A DNA stretch of 64,000 bases from Polyangiales bacterium (GCA_044229975.1 JBGARZ010000009.1:347947-411946), one strand, 5' to 3'; shown: positions 32,489-42,061, counted from the stretch's first letter. Numbers and translations: made by a program. The notes: generated by a model not told the origin, from the sequence alone.

Positions 32489-32666
32489 TGAGGTTCTCCC
32501 TGGCATTGGCCGACCGGGAGCTCACGACTTGTGGGCGTTTGGGCAGCCAACGGGACTCATCGCACGGCGACCATGCGCATCCCGATAGCAGCGTGGTTGC
32601 AGCGGCTCTTGGCCGCGGCGGAAGCGGCGAGGGAATGAGATCCCCCGCCGCTGCTTCAGGTGGGGT

Positions 32667-35600
32667 TCAGGGGCAGGTGAGCGCGGCGCAGGTCGACGGC
32701 GGGTCGGCCGGGCACGGGCCCTCGACCAGTTGAATCTGGTCGAAGTCCGCCGAGCTCCCGACCGGGCCCTGGAAGAGCTGGAACCGCAGGTACACATGCG
32801 TCCAGTCCGCGGGCATGACCATCTGCTTGGGGTACCAGCGCCACGTGTTGTCCGAGACCATCGGGGTGATGGTGCCGCCCAGGTAGTCGCTGTCGCCGCA
32901 ACCGCCGAGGCCCCAGAACTGCTCGTAGATCGACGCCTGACCCGCCGCGTTGGAGCGGTGGAAGCCGACGTAGGGGACGGCGCCGGGCGTTCCGCGCACC
33001 CACGACGAGAGGCAGTAGGTGCGCCCGCCGACCACCGGGGTCGGGACGTTGGTGAACACCCGACCGCCGCCCTGCGGAAGAAGCGCCGTCTCGTGGAAGT
33101 ACGTCCCCGCGCACTGCGGGCTCGCCGACGCGAGGGTCAGCGGACGCGCGTCGATGGAGTGCCAGGCCCCGGCGCCCGACTCCCAGTTCTCGGTGAAGGT
33201 GACGCTCGTGCACACCGGGCAGGCCGCGCCGGAGCAGCGCGTCGGCGGCGTGCAGATGGTGTTGACGCAGGCGCCCGCCGAGCACGCCTGATGGTAGGCG
33301 CACACGTTGCCGCACGCGCCGCAGTTGCTCGTGGTGGTGACGCTGGTGCACACGCCGCCGCAGCTCGCGAAGCCCGCGTTGCAGGCGCAGGTGCGGCTGC
33401 CCGGCGTGTTGGTGCAGGTCGAGTTCGTCCCGCAGCCGCCGTTGCTGGTGAGGCACTCGTTGACGTCGGCGCAGGTCACGCCGTTGCCCGTGTAGCCCGC
33501 GTTGCACGCGCAGGTGCGGCTGCCCGGGGTGTTGGTGCAGGTCGCGTTGGCGCTGCACCCGCCGTTGCCGGTCGCGCACTCGTTGACGTCGACGCAGGCG
33601 CCGCCCGCGAGGGCGTAGCCGGTGTTGCACGCCGCCGGGGCGCAGGCGCCCGCGAAGCAGGCGGCCGTCCCGTTGGCGACGACGCAGGCGTTGCCGCAGC
33701 CGCCGCAGTGCGCGGCCGTGCTCCCGAGGTCGACCTCGCAGCCGTCCGCGGAGCCCGCGTTGCAGTTGGCGTAACCCGCGTTGCAGCTCGCGAGCGCGCA
33801 GGAGCCCGCGGTGCACGACCCGGCGCCGTTGGCGTAGTTGCAGGCGACGCCGCAGCCGCCGCAGTGGGCGGCGTTGGCGTCGAGCGTCACCTCGCAGCCG
33901 TTGGCCGCAGCGTGATCGCAGTCGGCGAGGCCCGCGGTGCAGACCGCCGTGGTGCACGAGCCCGCCTGGCAGGTGCGGCCCTGGGTGCAGACCACCCCGC
34001 AGCCGCCGCAGTTGGCGCCGTCGGCGTTGGCGTCGACCTCGCAGCCGTTGGCCGCGCTGCCGTCGCAGTCGCGCTGCCCCGGGGCGCACGCGTAGCCGCA
34101 CACGCCCGCCGAGCAGGTGGCCGTCGCGGACGGAGCGTCGTTGCAGACGACCCCGCACGCGCCGCAGTTGCCGGTCTCGGTGGCGGTGGAGACCTCGCAG
34201 CCGTTGCCCGCGAGGTGATCGCAGGCAGCCGTTGCCCGCGAGGTGATCGCAGTCGGCGAAGTTCGCGTCGCACGAGCCGACGCCACACGCACCGTTGCTG
34301 CACGCCGCCGTGCCGTTGATGGTGGTGCAGGCAGTCCCGCACGCGCCGCAGTTGGAGGCGTCGGTGGTGATGGCCACCTCGCAGCCGTTGGCCGCGTTGC
34401 CGTCGCAGTTGGCGTAGCCCGCAGCGCACGCGCCCATCACGCACGCACCCGCCGCGCAGGCGGCGCCGGCGTTCGCAAAGGAGCAGGCGTTCTGGCAGGT
34501 TCCGCAGTGGGTGGCGTCGGCGTCGAGCGCGACCTCGCAGCCGTTGCTCTCGTCGGCGTCGCAGTTGGCGAGGCCCGCGGTGCAGGTCGTCGCCGAGCAG
34601 GCCCCGCTCGCGCAGGTGCGACCCTGGGTGCAGGCGTTGCCGCACGCGCCGCAGTTCGCGCCGTCGGTGGTGGTCGCGACCTCGCAGCCGTTGCTCGCGA
34701 GACCGTCGCAGTCGGCGTGGGTGGCGTCGCAGGTGTAGCCGCACGATCCGCCGCCGCAGGTCGCGGTGGCGTTGAACGGGACGTCGCACGCCGTCGCGCA
34801 GGCGCCGCAGTGGGCGAGGTCGGAGGTCAGCGAGACCTCGCAGCCGTCGGCCGGGTTGCCGTTGCAGTCGGCCCAGCCCGCATCACACGCGCCGAGCGCG
34901 CAGGCGCTGGCGCCGCACACGCCCGTCGCGTGGGCGTAGGTGCAGCGCGTGCCGCAGCCGCCGCAGTTGTCGGCGTCGTTGCCGAGCGCGATCTCGCAGC
35001 CGTTGGCGCGAACGCCGTCGCAGTCGGCGTACCCGACGTCGCACACCACGAAGCCGCAGACGCCCGCCGTGCACTGGGGCGCGGCGTTGGCGAAGGAGCA
35101 CGCGTTGCCGCACGCCCCGCAGTGGCCGCTGTCGCTGTCCGGCGTGGTCTCGCAGCCGTCGGCCGCGAGGCCGTTGCAGTCGGCGTGACCGGCCGCGCAC
35201 ACCGCCGTCGAGCAGGCGCCCGACTGGCAGGTGGTCGCGTTGGTGCAGACCGTCCCGCACGCGCCGCAGTTCGATGCGCTCGTGGTGGTGTCGACCTCAC
35301 AGCCGTTGGCCGCGTTGCCGTCGCAGTTGCTCCAGCCCGCTTCGCAGGTGAGGCCGCAGGCGCCCGCGCCGCAGGTCGGCGTCGAGTGGGGCCCCGACGC
35401 GCAGGTCACGCCGCAGCCGCCGCAGGAGGTGACCGCCGAGAGGTCGGTCTCGCAGCCGCTCGACGCGTTGCAGTCCGCGAAGCCCGGCGCGCAGGCGCCG
35501 ATGACGCACGCGCCCGCCGCGCAGACCGCCGAGGCGTGCGAGAGCGAGCAGACGTTGCCGCACGCGCCGCAGTGGGACGCGCTGCTGTCGAGCGCGACCT

Positions 35601-37146
35601 CGCAGCCGTTGGCCGCGCTGCCGTCGCAGTTGGCGTAGCCGGGCGCGCAGCTCCCGATGGCGCAAGCGCCCGCCGCGCAGACCGGCGAGGCGTTGGCAAA
35701 GGAGCACACGTTGCCGCAGGCGCCGCAGTGGGCGACGTCGGTGGCGGGCGTGGTCTCGCAGCCGTTGGAGGGATTGCCGTCGCAGTTGGCGTGGCCGGGA
35801 GCGCACGACCCGAGAGCGCACGCACCGGCCGCGCAGACCGCGCTGGCCTGAGCGTAGGAGCAGGCGTTGCCGCAGGCGCCGCAGTGGGCGACGTTGGAGG
35901 CGGGGTCGACCTCGCAGCCGTTGGCCTCGTTGCCGTCGCAGTTGGCGAGGCCGCCGGTGCAGACCGTGGCCGAGCACGCGCCCGCGATGCAGGTGCGACC
36001 CGCGGTGCAGGCGTTGCCTGCGGTTCCGCAGTTGGCGTTGGTGGTCACGTCGAGCTCACAGCCGTCGGCGCGGTTGCCGTTGGCGTTGGCCCAGCCGGGC
36101 GCGCAGGTGAGGGCGCAGGTACCGGTCGCGCAGGTGGGCGTCGAGTGGGCGCCCGCGGTGCACGCGACGTTGCAGCCGCCGCAGTGGGTGAGCGTGTTGG
36201 TGGCGACTTCGCAGCCGTCGGCCGCCGAGCCGTTGCAGTTGGCGCGGCCTGCGTCGCAGGTGGCGACGCCGCATGTGCCGTTGGTGCAGACCGCCGTCGC
36301 GTTGGCGAGCGAGCAGGCCGACCCGTTGGGCGCGTTGGGGTTGGAGCACAGGCCGGTGGCGGGGCTGCACACGCCCGCGGTGTGACAGGTCCCGCTGGTG
36401 GTGCAGGTGACGCCGAGGCACTCACAGGCGTCGCCCTGGCCGTCGTGGTTGGTGTCGAGCTGGTTGGCGTTGGCCACCGTGGGGCAGTTGTCCTGCCAGT
36501 CGAGGTCGCCGTCGCCGTCGCGGTCCACCGCGGGTCGGTCGATGCGGAACTTGATGCGCAGCACGCGCCCGTTGATGAGCGGGGAGAAGTTCACCGTGTC
36601 GACGCTGCGGAATTCCTGCTGGTTGCGGACGACGTCCACGTCCGCGAAGCCGAGCTCGCGGGTGCCGCCGCCGACCGCCGGGACGAGCACGCGCACGCGG
36701 TAGCGGGCGGTGGGCGAGAGGCACTCGTTGTTGGTCTTCCAGCGCGCGAGGAAGTAGCCCTCCGGGTCGGTGTCGCCGTCGTCGTCGTCCCAGTCGCAGG
36801 GGGAGCCCTGGTAGTGGATGCGGAGGCGCTCGTTGCCGGGGCCGCTGTTGGCGGTGAAGGTCGCGAGCGTGCGGATGGTGACACCCGCAGCGTTGACCTC
36901 GTCGATGCGAACGGTGGGGTTCACCGTCGGCAGGAAATCGCCGAACTGCGCCGGTCGCGGGACCATCGGCGGCAGGAAGAGGAAGCCCGACGTCCCACCG
37001 TTGTGGAGCTGGTCGGAGATGACCGCCTGCGCGGCGCGATGGGTCCCGTCGCCGCCGGGTGTGTCGGTGGAACTACACCCGACGGCGAGGAGGAGCGGCA
37101 CACAGATGGCCGCGAGCGTGGGTCGCCTGAGTCGTCGACTGGACAT
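32667..37146 (-). pseudogene. paralog of the giant lipoprotein, disrupted by a +28-nt frameshift (or assembly artifact); C-terminal cbEGF x2 and galactose-binding-like domain instead of an FGE domain
   Basis: N-terminal frame (ORF 32656-37224, start MSSRRLRRPTLAAICVPLLLAVGCSS at 37146 with GGGAG RBS) runs into Arg-rich out-of-frame sequence after about 34225. The correct C-terminal frame is ORF 32667-34292. The shift coincides with a 28-nt tandem duplication absent from the paralog. Confidence 0.7.
34197..34252. repeat. 28-bp perfect tandem duplication (gcagccgttgcccgcgaggtgatcgcag x2) causing a frameshift
   Basis: Directly visible. The paralogous site 29564-29591 in the intact gene has a single copy; flanks are identical. 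Confidence 0.9.
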
Positions 37147-37273
37147 GGAGTCTCCCTCGTGTGGTCGCGGAGAGACCCACGGAGTGTGAGCGCCCCAGTG
37201 ACCAACGGGAGCCATGCCAGACAACCGTCCAGAGACCGATGGCAGGTCGGTGGCGACGCGCGCCGCAGCGCGT

Positions 37274-37753
37274 TCAGACGCCCGTCGGGATTGTCAGCCC
37301 GTGCTCCGTCGCAAACCGCCGCGCCCCATCGGCGTCCTTGCGCAGCTTCCCCGCCCACAGCTCGCGCTCGGGGCACACCGGCACGCCGTCGATCCAGCGC
37401 GCGTCACGCACCAGCGCGCCGACGTCGAAGTCCGCCTCCTCGAAGGTCGCGTCCACCTGCAACCCGTCGCACACCGCGCGCACGTACCACCGCCCCTCGA
37501 GCGAGCGCTCCGTCCACCGCGCGTCCCAGGGCTCACCCCAGCAGGTCACCGCGCCTCCCCGGCTCTCGGCCCACGCCACGAAGCCCCGCAGCGCGCCCTC
37601 CGCCAGCAGCACGTCGCTGTCCGTCAACGCGTACGCCTCGCGCAGTCGCGGGTGCGCCAGCAGCAGCCCCGCGCTCCCGATGGTGACGAAGCCGACGCCC
37701 GCCTCCGCGAGCGATCGCAGCAGCGCGAAGTGGCGCTCGTTGTCCGCGCTCAC
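37274..37753 (-). CDS. nucleotidyltransferase-fold-like small protein (GS...DxD motif)
   Basis: GTG start at 37753 overlapping the upstream stop (GTGA). 159 aa with IGSAGLLLAHPRLREAYALTDSDVLL resembling the pol-beta-type NTase / ANT(2'')-like motif; the N-terminal part of ORF 37274-38383 is shadow. Confidence 0.35.
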   Translation of the reverse strand: MSADNERHFALLRSLAEAGVGFVTIGSAGLLLAHPRLREAYALTDSDVLLAEGALRGFVAWAESRGGAVTCWGEPWDARWTERSLEGRWYVRAVCDGLQVDATFEEADFDVGALVRDARWIDGVPVCPERELWAGKLRKDADGARRFATEHGLTIPTGV

Positions 37754-38829
37754 GGCTCGAAATAGTTGCCCACGACCTTCGCGTTGGGAACCCAGTCCCC
37801 ACACAGGTCGCCGCTCGAATGGAACACCAGCTTCTGCAACACCCCGCCCCTCACCTCGTCGTGGTGCGCCACGTAGCTCGACCCCTCCAGCACCACCTCC
37901 ATCACACCCCGCCGATAGACCTCGTTGTAGTAGTAGTAACCCGACGTCACGCCCACGAGGCTCCACCCCTCGCGCGCCGTCCCCTCCTCGCTCAACACCG
38001 CGTCCATCAGCGCGCGGGCCGACACCCGATGGCGGGCGATCCAGCGCGTCTCGCGGTTGTCCCGGTAGATGTCCCCGAGCTCGCTCAGCGCGCGAAACAC
38101 CACGCGCCGCACGCCCAGCGCCTCGGCGCCGTCGAGGTACGCCTCGACCTCCTCCACCGTCGACACGCCCTGCCCGTTGAGAACGCACACCAGCATCACC
38201 TCGACGCCCGCCGCGAGCACCCGCCGCACCGTCTCGTCGAAGGCCGCTCCACCGCGAATCGCCACGTCGCGATCGAAGCGCATCACCCGCTCGTTGATGC
38301 GCTCGTCGAGGTGGCAGCGCGACAGCTCCACCCGGTCGAAGCGCGCCCGCGCGAGGTCGGCCGCGAGCCCCGCATCGGCGCACAGCCCGCTGCCGTTGGT
38401 GTACAGCACCCTCGCCGGAAACAGCGCCCCGTGCTCACCCACCAGCGTGAGCAATCGACGCAGCCACGAGGGGTCGGAGGTCGCTTCGAGGCCGCTCAGG
38501 CTCAGGCCCATCTCGAAGCCAGCGAGCTCGCGCCACGCGCGGTCGAGCCCGGCGAAGTAGCGGTCGTGGTCGTCGATGGTGCGCTTCGCGGTGAGGCGCT
38601 CGGCGTCGAGGCGCATGAGCTCCTCGGAGCAGAACGAGCAGTGCGCGTTGCACGGCGTCGGGTTGGCGTAGGGCGTAAACGTCAGCCCCGGCCGCAGCAG
38701 AAAGGGCCTTCCCCGCAGCACACGCTCGACGGGCTCCTTCGGCTCGAAGGTGCGCCAGCGGCCGTCGCGAAACTCCCCCGGGCTCGTCACCGTCGCGGCG
38801 TGGCGAAACTGGTTGGGCCGGAAGCTCAT
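37750..38829 (-). CDS. viperin-like radical SAM enzyme
   Basis: 359 aa from MSFRPNQF. CNAHCSFC (viperin CNYKCGFC). SLSGLEAT (GGE motif). VLYTNGSGL (viperin SIVSNGSLI). LSRCHLDERIN (ISCDSFDEEVN). LVCVLNG (KINSVIN). VRRVVFRA (PVRWKVFQ). Motif spacing matches human viperin to within a few residues, with +10 aa between the CxxxCxxC and GGE motifs. No SPASM Cys cluster. ATG overlaps the upstream stop (ATGA). Confidence 0.6.
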   Translation of the reverse strand: MSFRPNQFRHAATVTSPGEFRDGRWRTFEPKEPVERVLRGRPFLLRPGLTFTPYANPTPCNAHCSFCSEELMRLDAERLTAKRTIDDHDRYFAGLDRAWRELAGFEMGLSLSGLEATSDPSWLRRLLTLVGEHGALFPARVLYTNGSGLCADAGLAADLARARFDRVELSRCHLDERINERVMRFDRDVAIRGGAAFDETVRRVLAAGVEVMLVCVLNGQGVSTVEEVEAYLDGAEALGVRRVVFRALSELGDIYRDNRETRWIARHRVSARALMDAVLSEEGTAREGWSLVGVTSGYYYYNEVYRRGVMEVVLEGSSYVAHHDEVRGGVLQKLVFHSSGDLCGDWVPNAKVVGNYFEP

Positions 38830-40826
38830 CGCGGCGCCTCGTCGAGCGTGACGCTCCCGGCCATCGCCGTGCAGATGCTGCGCGGCCCGTCGAAGGACTC
38901 CCGCGAGTGCCCGTACCGCACGTTGTCCACCAGCAGCAGATCGCCCGCCCCGTAGTGGACGCCCTCGCGCGTCGCGAGGAAGCCGTTGAGCAGCAGGTCG
39001 AGCTCGCCGTCGGTGAACTCCTCGCCGTTGCCGCGCGGATACCTCCGATATCCGTTGCGCAGCGCCGGCGCGTCGAGGCCCACGCGCGGAAACAGCAGCG
39101 CTCCCTGGTGGAACGCGGGCACCCGGATGCGGGTCATCAACGTGGCGAAGCCGTCGCCTTCCTCGACCCACCAGCAGTCGTCGAACTGCAACGTCGACGC
39201 GCGGCAGCGGGCCTCGGCCTCGACGCGATCGGTGGTCTGGAAGCGGTCCTGCCATGAGCGGAAGGTGTTGCTCGCCTTCTCGGGATGCCCCTCGTCGAGA
39301 AAGCCCATCTCGATGAGGTAGCCGTGTCGTCGCAGTGACTCCAGCAGCGCCACGCCCTCGTCGCCGCGCGCCCGCAGCCACGCTTCGAGCCCCGCCGCCG
39401 AGTGCACGAAGGTGCGACCGCCGCGCTCCGTGCCCGCCGCCTCCGACGAGAAGAACATCACCCGCCCCGGCATCCGCCGCTGGTAGAGCACCTCGTTGTG
39501 CGGCAGCAGCCACAGGTGTCGCGGGTAGTCGTCCGTCGCCCGCAGCTCGCGGCTCACCCGCTTCCTGACGGTGCGACCGCTGTGCAGTCCGCCCCACGGA
39601 AACGCATCGTCCCCGCCGAAGCGCAGCGCACCGAGCACCTCGTCGGGAAGGCTCGTTCCGCCGAGCCCGGTGCGCCGCACATGAAGCGCACCGTAGCGCT
39701 CGAACTCCCTGCGAATGGCGTCGAGCGTCGGGCCGTCGAGCACCCCATAGGCATCGAAGGTGCGCGCCGTGAAACGCGTCGACCAGTCGACCAGCGCGGG
39801 CGCAAACGCGTACCGCACGCCGCCGTGGGTGGCGCAGCGAGCGAGGGGCGCGGGTGCCTCGCGCGGAGCTGGTTCGCACGGGTCGCGTAGCTCACCCGCC
39901 ATGCCGACGAGCACCTCGCGTGCTCCTGAGAAGGGCTCGCGCGAGTGGCCGTAGCGGAGGTTGTCGAAGAGCACGAGGTCGCCCGCGCGCAGCGTCGTGC
40001 CTTCGCGCGTCGCGAGGTAGGCGGCGCGCAGGAGAGACTTGTCGGCGTCGTCGAGCTCGTCGCCGTTGCCCAGCGGAAAGCGCCGGTAGCCGTTGCGCGC
40101 CATCGGTCCGTCGAGCGCGATGCGGGGGAAGCGGAGGTAGCGCTGACCGTCGCGGGGGTCGGTCCACCACGGGTTGAGCGTGATGCGGGTCATCAGCGTG
40201 CGGTCGTCGCGCCACCAGCACGCGTCGTACTCGTCGGTGCGCTCGCGCGCGGTGCGCAGCGCGGCGTCGGGGTCGTCGGTGGCGAAGCGCTCCTGCCAGG
40301 ACTGGAAGTAGTTGTCGGCCTTGGCGGGGTGCTCGCGATCGAGGAAGCCCGTCTCGATGGAGAGCCCGTGGCGGGCGATGCGATCGAGCAGCGACGCGCC
40401 CGCAACGCTCTGTCGAAGCGCGGACTCGACGGCGTGGGCGGAGTGCAGGAAGACCCGACCACCGTGAGTGGGAGCGACGGTGCAGGCGATGAGAACCCAC
40501 CGCGGAGAGCGCCGCTGGTACTGCACCTCGTTGTTGGGCAGCAGGTAGAGATCGGGCGGATAGTGGTCCATGCGCCGTAGCCCCGGCGCCGCCCACTTCT
40601 CCTGCCGCGCGGCGCTCGTGCGACCGCCCGCCGTGAAGCGCTCGGCCTCGCCGAAGCCCAGCGGATCGAGCACCCGTTGCAGCGTGTCGATGGCCGAGAG
40701 CCCGGTGTTCTCGACGTGCACCGCGCCGTAGGTGACAAGCGCGGCGCGGATCTCGGCCAGCCGTCGTGCGTCCAGTGCTCCGCCGGCGTCGAAGGTGCGG
40801 GCGCTGAAGCGTTCGTCGCCCATCAT
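38826..40826 (-). CDS. tandem-didomain Fe(II)/2-oxoglutarate oxygenase of the TauD/TfdA / clavaminate-synthase-like family
   Basis: Start MMGDERFSARTFDAGG (AGGAAGA RBS 8 nt upstream). Two ~320-aa repeats, each with LLP[N/H]NEV.YQRR...GGR.F.HS and [FV]DN.RYGHSRE (TauD-like hhhWDNR...H.R). Repeat 1 has N-x-E and repeat 2 has H-x-E at the first triad position. The N-terminal 426 codons of ORF 38826-42104 are Arg-rich shadow. Confidence 0.6.
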   Translation of the reverse strand: MMGDERFSARTFDAGGALDARRLAEIRAALVTYGAVHVENTGLSAIDTLQRVLDPLGFGEAERFTAGGRTSAARQEKWAAPGLRRMDHYPPDLYLLPNNEVQYQRRSPRWVLIACTVAPTHGGRVFLHSAHAVESALRQSVAGASLLDRIARHGLSIETGFLDREHPAKADNYFQSWQERFATDDPDAALRTARERTDEYDACWWRDDRTLMTRITLNPWWTDPRDGQRYLRFPRIALDGPMARNGYRRFPLGNGDELDDADKSLLRAAYLATREGTTLRAGDLVLFDNLRYGHSREPFSGAREVLVGMAGELRDPCEPAPREAPAPLARCATHGGVRYAFAPALVDWSTRFTARTFDAYGVLDGPTLDAIRREFERYGALHVRRTGLGGTSLPDEVLGALRFGGDDAFPWGGLHSGRTVRKRVSRELRATDDYPRHLWLLPHNEVLYQRRMPGRVMFFSSEAAGTERGGRTFVHSAAGLEAWLRARGDEGVALLESLRRHGYLIEMGFLDEGHPEKASNTFRSWQDRFQTTDRVEAEARCRASTLQFDDCWWVEEGDGFATLMTRIRVPAFHQGALLFPRVGLDAPALRNGYRRYPRGNGEEFTDGELDLLLNGFLATREGVHYGAGDLLLVDNVRYGHSRESFDGPRSICTAMAGSVTLDEAPR

Positions 40827-40840
40827 CACGAGAGGTCTTC

Positions 40841-42061
40841 CTACGTCGAGCCCGGCGTGCGCAGCTTGTCGCTGCCGACCCACTCGTCGTAGCTGTCGTT
40901 CCAGCCCTCGTAGTGGATGCGGTGGAGCGACGCGCGCACCTCGCGGATCGTGGCCGCGTACCACCGCCGTCGCCAGCGGGCCTCGACGCTCGTGCCCACC
41001 GCGTAGACCACCGGCGTGTACGCCCGGATGCGGTCGGCCCCGACCCACTCGTCGAACAGGTGATTGAACTCCGCGTACCGGACAAACACCTGCCCGTTGG
41101 CGCGGCGCTCCAGCACGATGGCGCGGTACCACCGGCCCTGGTAGCGCACCTCGATGGTCTCGCCCTCGCCCATCGCCGGCGCGCTGGTGCGCGGACCCAG
41201 CGCCCACGACGTCGCGAAGCCGCCGCGGGTGGTGGCCGTCGAGCGCTGCTGGTCGAGGTACGCGAGGCGGGTCTCGGCGTGCGTAGCCACGTCGGCGAAG
41301 GTGATGGCCGCGTCGCCGTTGCGATCGGCCGCGGCGGCACCGCGGATGCCGTCGAGGAGGCAGTCGGTGAAGGTCCACGCGCCGGTCGACTGCTCGCTCG
41401 CGTCGCTCGAAGCGAGCACCGCGGCCGGGACGTTGAGGCGACTCATCACCTCGGCGTCGAGCGCGCCCGAGTAGCAGCAGTCGGCGGTGAGCATCACGGC
41501 CGCGCCGCGAAACGACGCGAGCGCCTGGGCGATGCTCGACAGGCCCCAGCACGTCGCCTGGGCGTCGAGGGTTCCGTCGTAGGGGACGAAGAAGCTCGCG
41601 GTGGCGCCGCCCATGCCCGCGTCGCGGTCGGCGGAGACGCGCATCCCGTGGCCCGCGAAGTAGAGCCAGAGCAGCTCGCCCGGCTGGGTGGCGGCCACCG
41701 CTGCGGCGAAGCCCGCGACCACCGCCGCGCGCGTCGCAGCCCGGTCTTGCAGGTAGGTGATGTTGCCCCGCGGAACGCCCCGCGCCGCGAAGGCCTCGAC
41801 GAGCTCCACGTCGCGCCGCCCTTCGGCGGTAAACGACCCGAAGGTCTCGCTGTCGGCCCACGCGAGCAGCCCCACCGCGAAGACGCGGGTGCGCGCCGGA
41901 TCGAAGGCCGCGCTCACCGGCAGCACGTCCGCGCCGACGGAGGTACCCGCGTCCCGCGCGGCGCCCGACGACCCGCCGTTGCCACAGGCGGCGAGCGGTG
42001 TGGCGAGGGCGGCCCCGCAGAGGCCGAGGACGCTGCGACGGGTGAGTCGGGTTTCGCTCAT
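40841..42061 (-). CDS. caspase-like (peptidase C14) TAT-exported lipoprotein with tandem C-terminal Tudor/Agenet-like domains
   Basis: Twin-arginine signal TRRSVLGLCGAALATPLAACG. Caspase dyad motifs LWLYFAGHGM and LTADCCYSGAL. Two repeats RWYRAIV...VRYAEFNHLFDEWVGADRIR / RWYAATIREV...IHYEGWNDSYDEWVGSDKLR. Confidence 0.65.
   Translation of the reverse strand: MSETRLTRRSVLGLCGAALATPLAACGNGGSSGAARDAGTSVGADVLPVSAAFDPARTRVFAVGLLAWADSETFGSFTAEGRRDVELVEAFAARGVPRGNITYLQDRAATRAAVVAGFAAAVAATQPGELLWLYFAGHGMRVSADRDAGMGGATASFFVPYDGTLDAQATCWGLSSIAQALASFRGAAVMLTADCCYSGALDAEVMSRLNVPAAVLASSDASEQSTGAWTFTDCLLDGIRGAAAADRNGDAAITFADVATHAETRLAYLDQQRSTATTRGGFATSWALGPRTSAPAMGEGETIEVRYQGRWYRAIVLERRANGQVFVRYAEFNHLFDEWVGADRIRAYTPVVYAVGTSVEARWRRRWYAATIREVRASLHRIHYEGWNDSYDEWVGSDKLRTPGST

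Follow-up and report, generated by a model that had tools for sequence, protein, structure and literature searches.

A conserved pair of a radical SAM enzyme, remotely related to viperin and MoaA, and a minimal nucleotidyltransferase in a Polyangiales bacterium and other bacteria

In a 64,000-nt stretch of DNA from a Polyangiales bacterium (GCA_044229975.1 JBGARZ010000009.1:347947-411946; the window, whose positions give the coordinates below except where a locus such as L075 is named), the minus strand carries four tandem open reading frames (ORFs) at 37274-42061. They encode a caspase-like lipoprotein, a didomain TauD-like oxygenase, a radical S-adenosylmethionine (SAM) enzyme and a small nucleotidyltransferase (NTase), and an earlier note, the sequence-only reading, had taken them together as an operon with a viperin-like enzyme. 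As shown here, the conserved core of this locus is the radical SAM-NTase pair, a self-contained two-enzyme unit. The pair recurs and is repeatedly fused, the oxygenase is limited to certain lineages, and the caspase-like gene is never conserved beside the others; therefore, the oxygenase is a lineage-specific accessory addition and the caspase-like lipoprotein gene is a mere neighbour. In addition, the radical SAM protein is not a viperin. It founds an uncharacterised family, a separate branch beside viperin and MoaA that is only remotely related to both, and its 159-aa partner is a minimal nucleotidyltransferase.

The pairing of the two core genes can be seen in several features. First, 65 genome loci and several metagenome contigs were fetched and searched by tblastn with all window proteins, and the NTase gene directly follows the radical SAM gene in about 50 of the 71 fetched loci, in six or more phyla. 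Such pairs occur in Myxococcota, Bacteroidota, Acidobacteriota, Calditrichota, Spirochaetota and Actinomycetota, and one copy is carried by the mobilizable Hymenobacter plasmid pHsw1. Second, the small gene begins within 30 nt of the radical SAM stop in 44 of 52 measured pairs, mostly with a 4-nt overlap. In the window, the ATGA overlap between the oxygenase and radical SAM genes and the GTGA overlap between the radical SAM and 159-aa genes can both be read in the sequence, and the translational coupling claimed for them holds. Third, the two proteins are joined into a single polypeptide in at least 10 cases, which include L065 (539 aa), P0008, P0017 and seven more divergent representatives. 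The two core proteins are, in short, physically or functionally coupled, and both retain the catalytic residues of their folds.

The other genes of the window do not share this conservation. The oxygenase gene was found in 21 loci, which are of the Myxococcota type except for one Leptospiraceae locus and one metagenome-assembled genome labelled Alphaproteobacteria, and it is absent from the Bacteroidota-type pairs. All three genes, for oxygenase, radical SAM enzyme and NTase, stand together in about 20 Myxococcota loci and one Leptospiraceae genome. Pairs without it were found in Hymenobacter, other Bacteroidota, Blastocatellia, Calditrichia and Nocardia. The sequence-only reading had emphasised the oxygenase as the partner of the radical SAM protein; the obligate partner is instead the small NTase. 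With regard to synteny, the three-gene order recurs in about 20 other genomes, but the four-gene unit recurs nowhere, only its last two or three genes being shared. The flanks are entirely different in relatives whose radical SAM proteins are 86%, 88% and 95% identical, the aldo-keto reductase gene of the window has no counterpart in any fetched locus by tblastn, and no further recurring neighbour emerged when flanking genes were clustered by all-against-all BLAST or when 150 flanking proteins were compared with Pfam.

The radical SAM enzyme (359 aa; 37750-38829, minus strand) belongs to its superfamily by a CxxxCxxC cluster motif (C60-x3-C64-x2-C67) and a partial TIM-barrel core with the SAM-binding G-x-E. 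Residues kept superfamily-wide are the three cluster cysteines, G-x-E, N145, S-R171, N179 and F-R246. The motifs of the family itself are SLSGLEATS (where GGEP is expected), YTNGSGL, ELSRCH-D-xx-N, VVFRELS, GYYYYNE and LCGDW. Outside the cluster motif only C215 and C343 are conserved, which indicates that the protein has no auxiliary cluster. The family is large, with 262 matches in the initial search and 734 clusters at 50% identity (E <= 1e-3), and it is poorly covered by existing models. The window protein scores only 15 bits against Pfam PF04055 and 11.5 bits (E 0.038) against the PADLOC model for prokaryotic viperins, pVip, and it matches none of the NCBIfam radical SAM models, including viperin NF038283, at E <= 0.1. 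Among 30 relatives, 26 touch NF038283 (best E 2.7e-7) and 9-10 touch MoaA models (best E 2.7e-6), in both cases far below the cut-off, and 27 touch PADLOC pVip (best E 1.2e-8). When the PDB was searched by sequence with the single protein and with the family profile, nothing significant was obtained and no viperin was among the matches; the best real match was NifB (E 1.3 and 0.18, respectively). In fold searches MoaA is no more distant from the protein than viperin is, and viperin is not its closest solved structure.

These results bear directly on the earlier identification of the enzyme as viperin by six motifs. The four ORFs are present on the minus strand as described, and the radical SAM protein carries all quoted motifs, which do align with viperin. 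However, when the protein was aligned by MAFFT with hand-typed reference sequences of human viperin and E. coli MoaA, the motifs align equally to both (the MoaA counterparts being CNFRCTYC, TGGEP, TTNGYRL, VSVDSLD and VKVNTVL), and the C-terminal third of the protein aligns with neither. With the same hand-typed references, hhalign with the family profile gave 6.9% for human viperin and 14.4% for E. coli MoaA, a comparison too insensitive to discriminate between them. The label "viperin-like" fits loosely at best: NF038283 is the named family touched by most relatives, but the pVip score and the missing NCBIfam viperin match of the window protein speak against it, and neither the NF038283 nor the pVip family cut-off is reached.

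Both relatives are NTP-modifying enzymes (NTP, nucleoside triphosphate): viperin makes an antiviral chain terminator, and MoaA, a GTP 3',8-cyclase, makes the first molybdenum cofactor intermediate. Like viperin and pVip, the window enzyme is a single-cluster radical SAM protein with the same partial TIM-barrel core, and shares CNxxCxFC, SG-x-E, NGS, S-x-D/H-x-D-E-x-x-N and a basic residue on strand 5. It differs from them in scoring far below the cut-off, in having GLE instead of GGE, and in an unlike 45-residue N-terminal extension and an unlike, beta-rich C-terminal domain (GYYYYNE, LCGDW); a C-terminal extension like that of viperin, which closes over the NTP, was looked for and not found. 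Unlike viperin, it has neither a kinase neighbour nor a defence-island context, and its partner is a minimal NTase to which it is often fused. Compared with MoaA, it lacks the three C-terminal cysteines for a second [4Fe-4S] cluster, and there are no molybdenum cofactor genes nearby. It also differs from the SPASM/twitch peptide maturases, having no Cys-rich C-terminus and no conserved short ORF nearby.

The NTase (159 aa; 37274-37753, minus strand), whose GTG start overlaps the radical SAM stop, is assigned to the pol-beta fold. Its family shows hG[GS] ... DxD and a third carboxylate on an NTase alpha/beta fold that resembles PF14907, the catalytic pattern G..DxD..D..E is invariant across the family, and the invariant residues are G26, D45, D47, W72, R92, D101 and E105. 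The window protein itself has no match in Pfam, NCBIfam or PADLOC. PF14907 (NTP_transf_5) is touched by 23 of 50 family members, and together with the structural neighbours these matches bear out the NTase-fold call of the sequence-only reading. Sequence identity to TM1012, ANT(2'')-Ia, LnuA, MenT1/TglT and PF14907 is only 10-15%, and the conserved W72 and R92 signature distinguishes the family from these known minimal NTases. To our knowledge, neither pairing nor fusion of a minimal NTase with a radical SAM enzyme has been described.

The tandem TauD/TfdA assignment of the 667-aa oxygenase (38826-40829, minus strand, GTG start) likewise stands, with 68.3 bits against Pfam PF02668 (cut-off 27) in two stretches. 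A PDB search with a profile of both halves retrieved the clavaminate-synthase-like At3g21360 (3.9e-16), the closest solved relative, as well as clavaminate synthase. The C-terminal half (38826-39824), whose stop overlaps the radical SAM start, has the complete iron/2-oxoglutarate (2OG) motif: H-N-E ... GHSRE ... R is invariant in 20 orthologues, which gives the facial triad and the 2OG-binding Arg. The N-terminal half (39825-40829) has the same fold but reads N-N-E in every orthologue; it has thus lost the first iron ligand, and its facial triad is incomplete. This half is probably a non-catalytic pseudo-subunit, and judged from these residues the whole chain may be a fused pseudo-dimer in which a single active site is left. 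Compared with At3g21360 and CAS1 (PF02668), it shares the fold and, in its C-terminal half, the HxE...H...R motif; it differs in having two TauD domains in one chain and Asn for the first His of the N-terminal half. In the Leptospiraceae locus (L001 362-1932), some small genes resembling toxin-antitoxin genes (XisI, DUF433, DUF3368/UPF0175) lie about 4 kb upstream of the three-gene cassette, and the gene directly before the cassette encodes a 508-aa protein without a family match.

What the pair does can be proposed only tentatively. We suggest that the conserved unit may well be a self-contained, bipartite radical SAM and NTase enzyme acting on the same nucleotide-like substrate or complex. 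With an NTP as donor, the NTase would attach a nucleotidyl group to a hydroxyl or phosphate of its substrate, a small nucleotide-like molecule that probably carries phosphate. The 5'-deoxyadenosyl radical of the radical SAM enzyme would then abstract a hydrogen and cause a rearrangement or beta-elimination, for which the nucleotidyl group could serve as leaving group; alternatively, the NTP might first be modified by the radical SAM enzyme and then be used for transfer by the NTase. In Myxococcota and the one Leptospiraceae genome, the fused pseudo-dimeric TauD/CAS-type Fe(II)/2OG oxygenase, catalytic only in its C-terminal half, would add an O2-dependent hydroxylation. The product would be a modified nucleotide or a nucleoside-type metabolite. 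A nucleotide-like, phosphate-bearing substrate is suggested because the nearest families, viperin and MoaA, modify NTPs, because basic residues (R171, R184, K/R212 and R246) are conserved on successive strands, as in viperin and MoaA, and because the partner NTase consumes an NTP. The amino-methyltransferase fusion of one homologue and the distant homologues in phages, both described below, also lean towards a nucleotide.

Several observations weigh against this proposal. Position 212, the basic site of strand 5 that aligns with the K of viperin FKINS and MoaA VKVNT, is K or R in 108 of 117 close relatives and Met in the window (codon 38194-38196, minus strand). Fold-search scores of SPASM-type peptide maturases nearly equal those of viperin. 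The structural neighbours of the NTase include both tRNA-modifying toxins (MenT1, TglT) and small-molecule ANT/Lnu enzymes, so that a macromolecular target is equally compatible. The Pfam scan of the flanks linked the cassette to no gene of a pathway, whether for a kinase, a phosphatase, a transporter or another protein. Finally, the order of the NTase and radical SAM reactions is pure conjecture.

Other functions have been weighed against the same evidence. It is unlikely, though worth considering, that the radical SAM half makes a modified, e.g. dehydrated and non-extendable, nucleotide which the NTase half installs on a nucleic-acid or metabolite target, as a new nucleotide-based effector. 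If so, the mechanism of immunity, toxicity or signalling would be distinct from that of viperin, and phages would carry their own diverged version. A toxin or abortive-infection module, in which a MenT/AbiEii-like NTase blocks the 3' ends of tRNA or RNA and the radical SAM enzyme supplies a modified, non-extendable nucleotide or regulates the toxin chemically, much as in type VII systems, seems to us rather improbable. The toxins among the structural neighbours would fit it, but the small-molecule enzymes ANT(2'') and LnuA score equal to MenT, PADLOC has no match for the small protein, repeated fusion into one polypeptide is not what is usually seen between a toxin and its regulator, and no known defence or toxin-antitoxin genes are enriched nearby.

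The immediate neighbourhood is also relevant to whether the enzyme could be a genuine prokaryotic viperin, which would convert CTP, UTP or GTP into antiviral 3'-deoxy-3',4'-didehydro-NTP chain terminators, with the NTase and the oxygenase in place of the usual kinase. For this survey, 150 immediate neighbours from 44 loci were compared with Pfam and PADLOC. A PADLOC match at 1e-15 was obtained for only one of the 150. None of the Pfam families is represented by more than two of these neighbours, and the 25 families listed include no nucleotide kinase; thus, the typical viperin context is absent, and a defence-island setting of the cassette is unsupported. Two loci count towards defence. In L075 (6983-8826), where the radical SAM protein is 88% identical, a complete Septu (PtuA 2e-140, PtuB 9e-60) follows 58 nt after the cassette. 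In the Bacteroidota locus L073 (233-6547), genes for NADAR, PARG, Macro and Tpt1 (PTS_2-RNA) proteins lie just upstream of the pair, together with a 420-aa radical SAM protein matching pVip at 7e-15; these upstream genes may be a separate ADP-ribose/viperin-like island. The Septu neighbour, the single cluster, the resemblance of D-E-x-x-N to viperin DEEVN and the viperin-model matches of most relatives speak for viperin activity, but with all cut-offs missed we regard it as improbable.

We find it just as improbable that the genes form a peptide- or protein-modifying cassette, like those for ribosomally synthesised and post-translationally modified peptides, in which a radical SAM maturase, a CAS-like beta-hydroxylase and a PF14907 NTase tailor a peptide. 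The near-equal fold scores of SPASM-type maturases are in its favour, but the enzyme lacks the cysteines of a SPASM domain or auxiliary cluster, no gene for a protease, transporter or peptide recognition element (RRE) is linked, and no conserved short precursor ORF was found within 500 nt upstream or in the 600 nt searched downstream, the clusters obtained being fragments of known genes only. That all four genes, including the one for the caspase-like lipoprotein, work as one system is hardly credible: they lie on the same strand with a gap of only 11-14 nt and no terminator-like site between caspase and oxygenase genes (the terminator scan being uninformative at 72% G+C), but in none of about 70 loci did tblastn place a caspase homologue next to the cassette, including the 86%, 88% and 95% identical relatives, and the caspase-like protein is an exported lipoprotein while the other three are cytoplasmic.

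Distant homologues extend the family beyond bacterial chromosomes. A diverged radical SAM homologue is encoded by Dulem virus 40 and 44 gut-phage contigs (hhalign probability 99.9%). In this gut-phage clade (L076 5081-7234, L078-L121; contigs of 60-190 kb), its gene always comes after a second, 255-aa radical SAM gene, to which it is fused in P0276, and in Dulem virus 40 a GNAT acetyltransferase gene follows it. The viral contigs contained no members when scanned with the family patterns, the diverged clade being found only with its own sequence, and none of the three proteins of the window cassette has a match in PHROGs. Furthermore, the 690-aa P0206 (L122 4962-7034) combines a family member with a C-terminal amino-methyltransferase domain of the N6/N4 type. 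Because neighbouring genes on its contig encode mitochondrial-carrier proteins, P0206 is probably eukaryotic.

The cassette lies within known enzyme superfamilies, and its radical SAM-NTase pairing appears to be new. Literature searches on radical SAM-NTase pairing, PF14907 and viperin-like families with NTases found nothing relevant, and Pfam, NCBIfam, PADLOC and PHROGs hold no model for the radical SAM family or the small protein. The family is a third sizeable branch beside viperin and MoaA: it comprises about 730 clusters at 50% identity, spread over six or more phyla, with members in gut phages and on a plasmid as well. Its coupling, often by fusion, to an NTase points to unexplored radical chemistry on nucleotides, and the natural fusions and compact operons provide ready-made constructs for biochemistry. 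A misleading lead has also been removed, since the locus is not a viperin-caspase defence operon.

The neighbouring caspase-like lipoprotein gene (406 aa; 40841-42061, minus strand; the ORF starts MSETRLTRRSVLGLCGAALATPLAACG) is never conserved beside the other genes and so is not a member of the system to which it had been assigned, although in the window it may be co-transcribed with the cassette. The earlier reading gave its distance to the oxygenase as 14 nt, which is correct to the first ATG, but the GTG start lies only 11 nt past the caspase TAG. A scan for promoters and terminators across the operon was uninformative at this base composition. The protein has an N-terminus with a twin-arginine signal and a lipobox, the caspase-like motifs YFAGHG and DCCYSG, and two Tudor-knot/Agenet-like domains at its C-terminus. 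It scores 18.5 bits against Pfam C14 (cut-off 21.4) and E 4.8e-10 against the PADLOC caspase model, and among NCBIfam models it matches "caspase, EACC1-associated type" best, with 45 bits (cut-off 140; 6.8e-12). This exported architecture is unusual in its own right and unrelated to the cassette. Elsewhere in the window, at 32656-37224 on the minus strand, a lipoprotein of about 1500 aa is encoded whose Cys-rich repeats have the form CG.CG..C ... NGCE. The sensible frame seems to change near 34290, where two overlapping ORFs both encode DHLAGNGC; this suggests a pseudogene, a frameshift or an error in the sequence.

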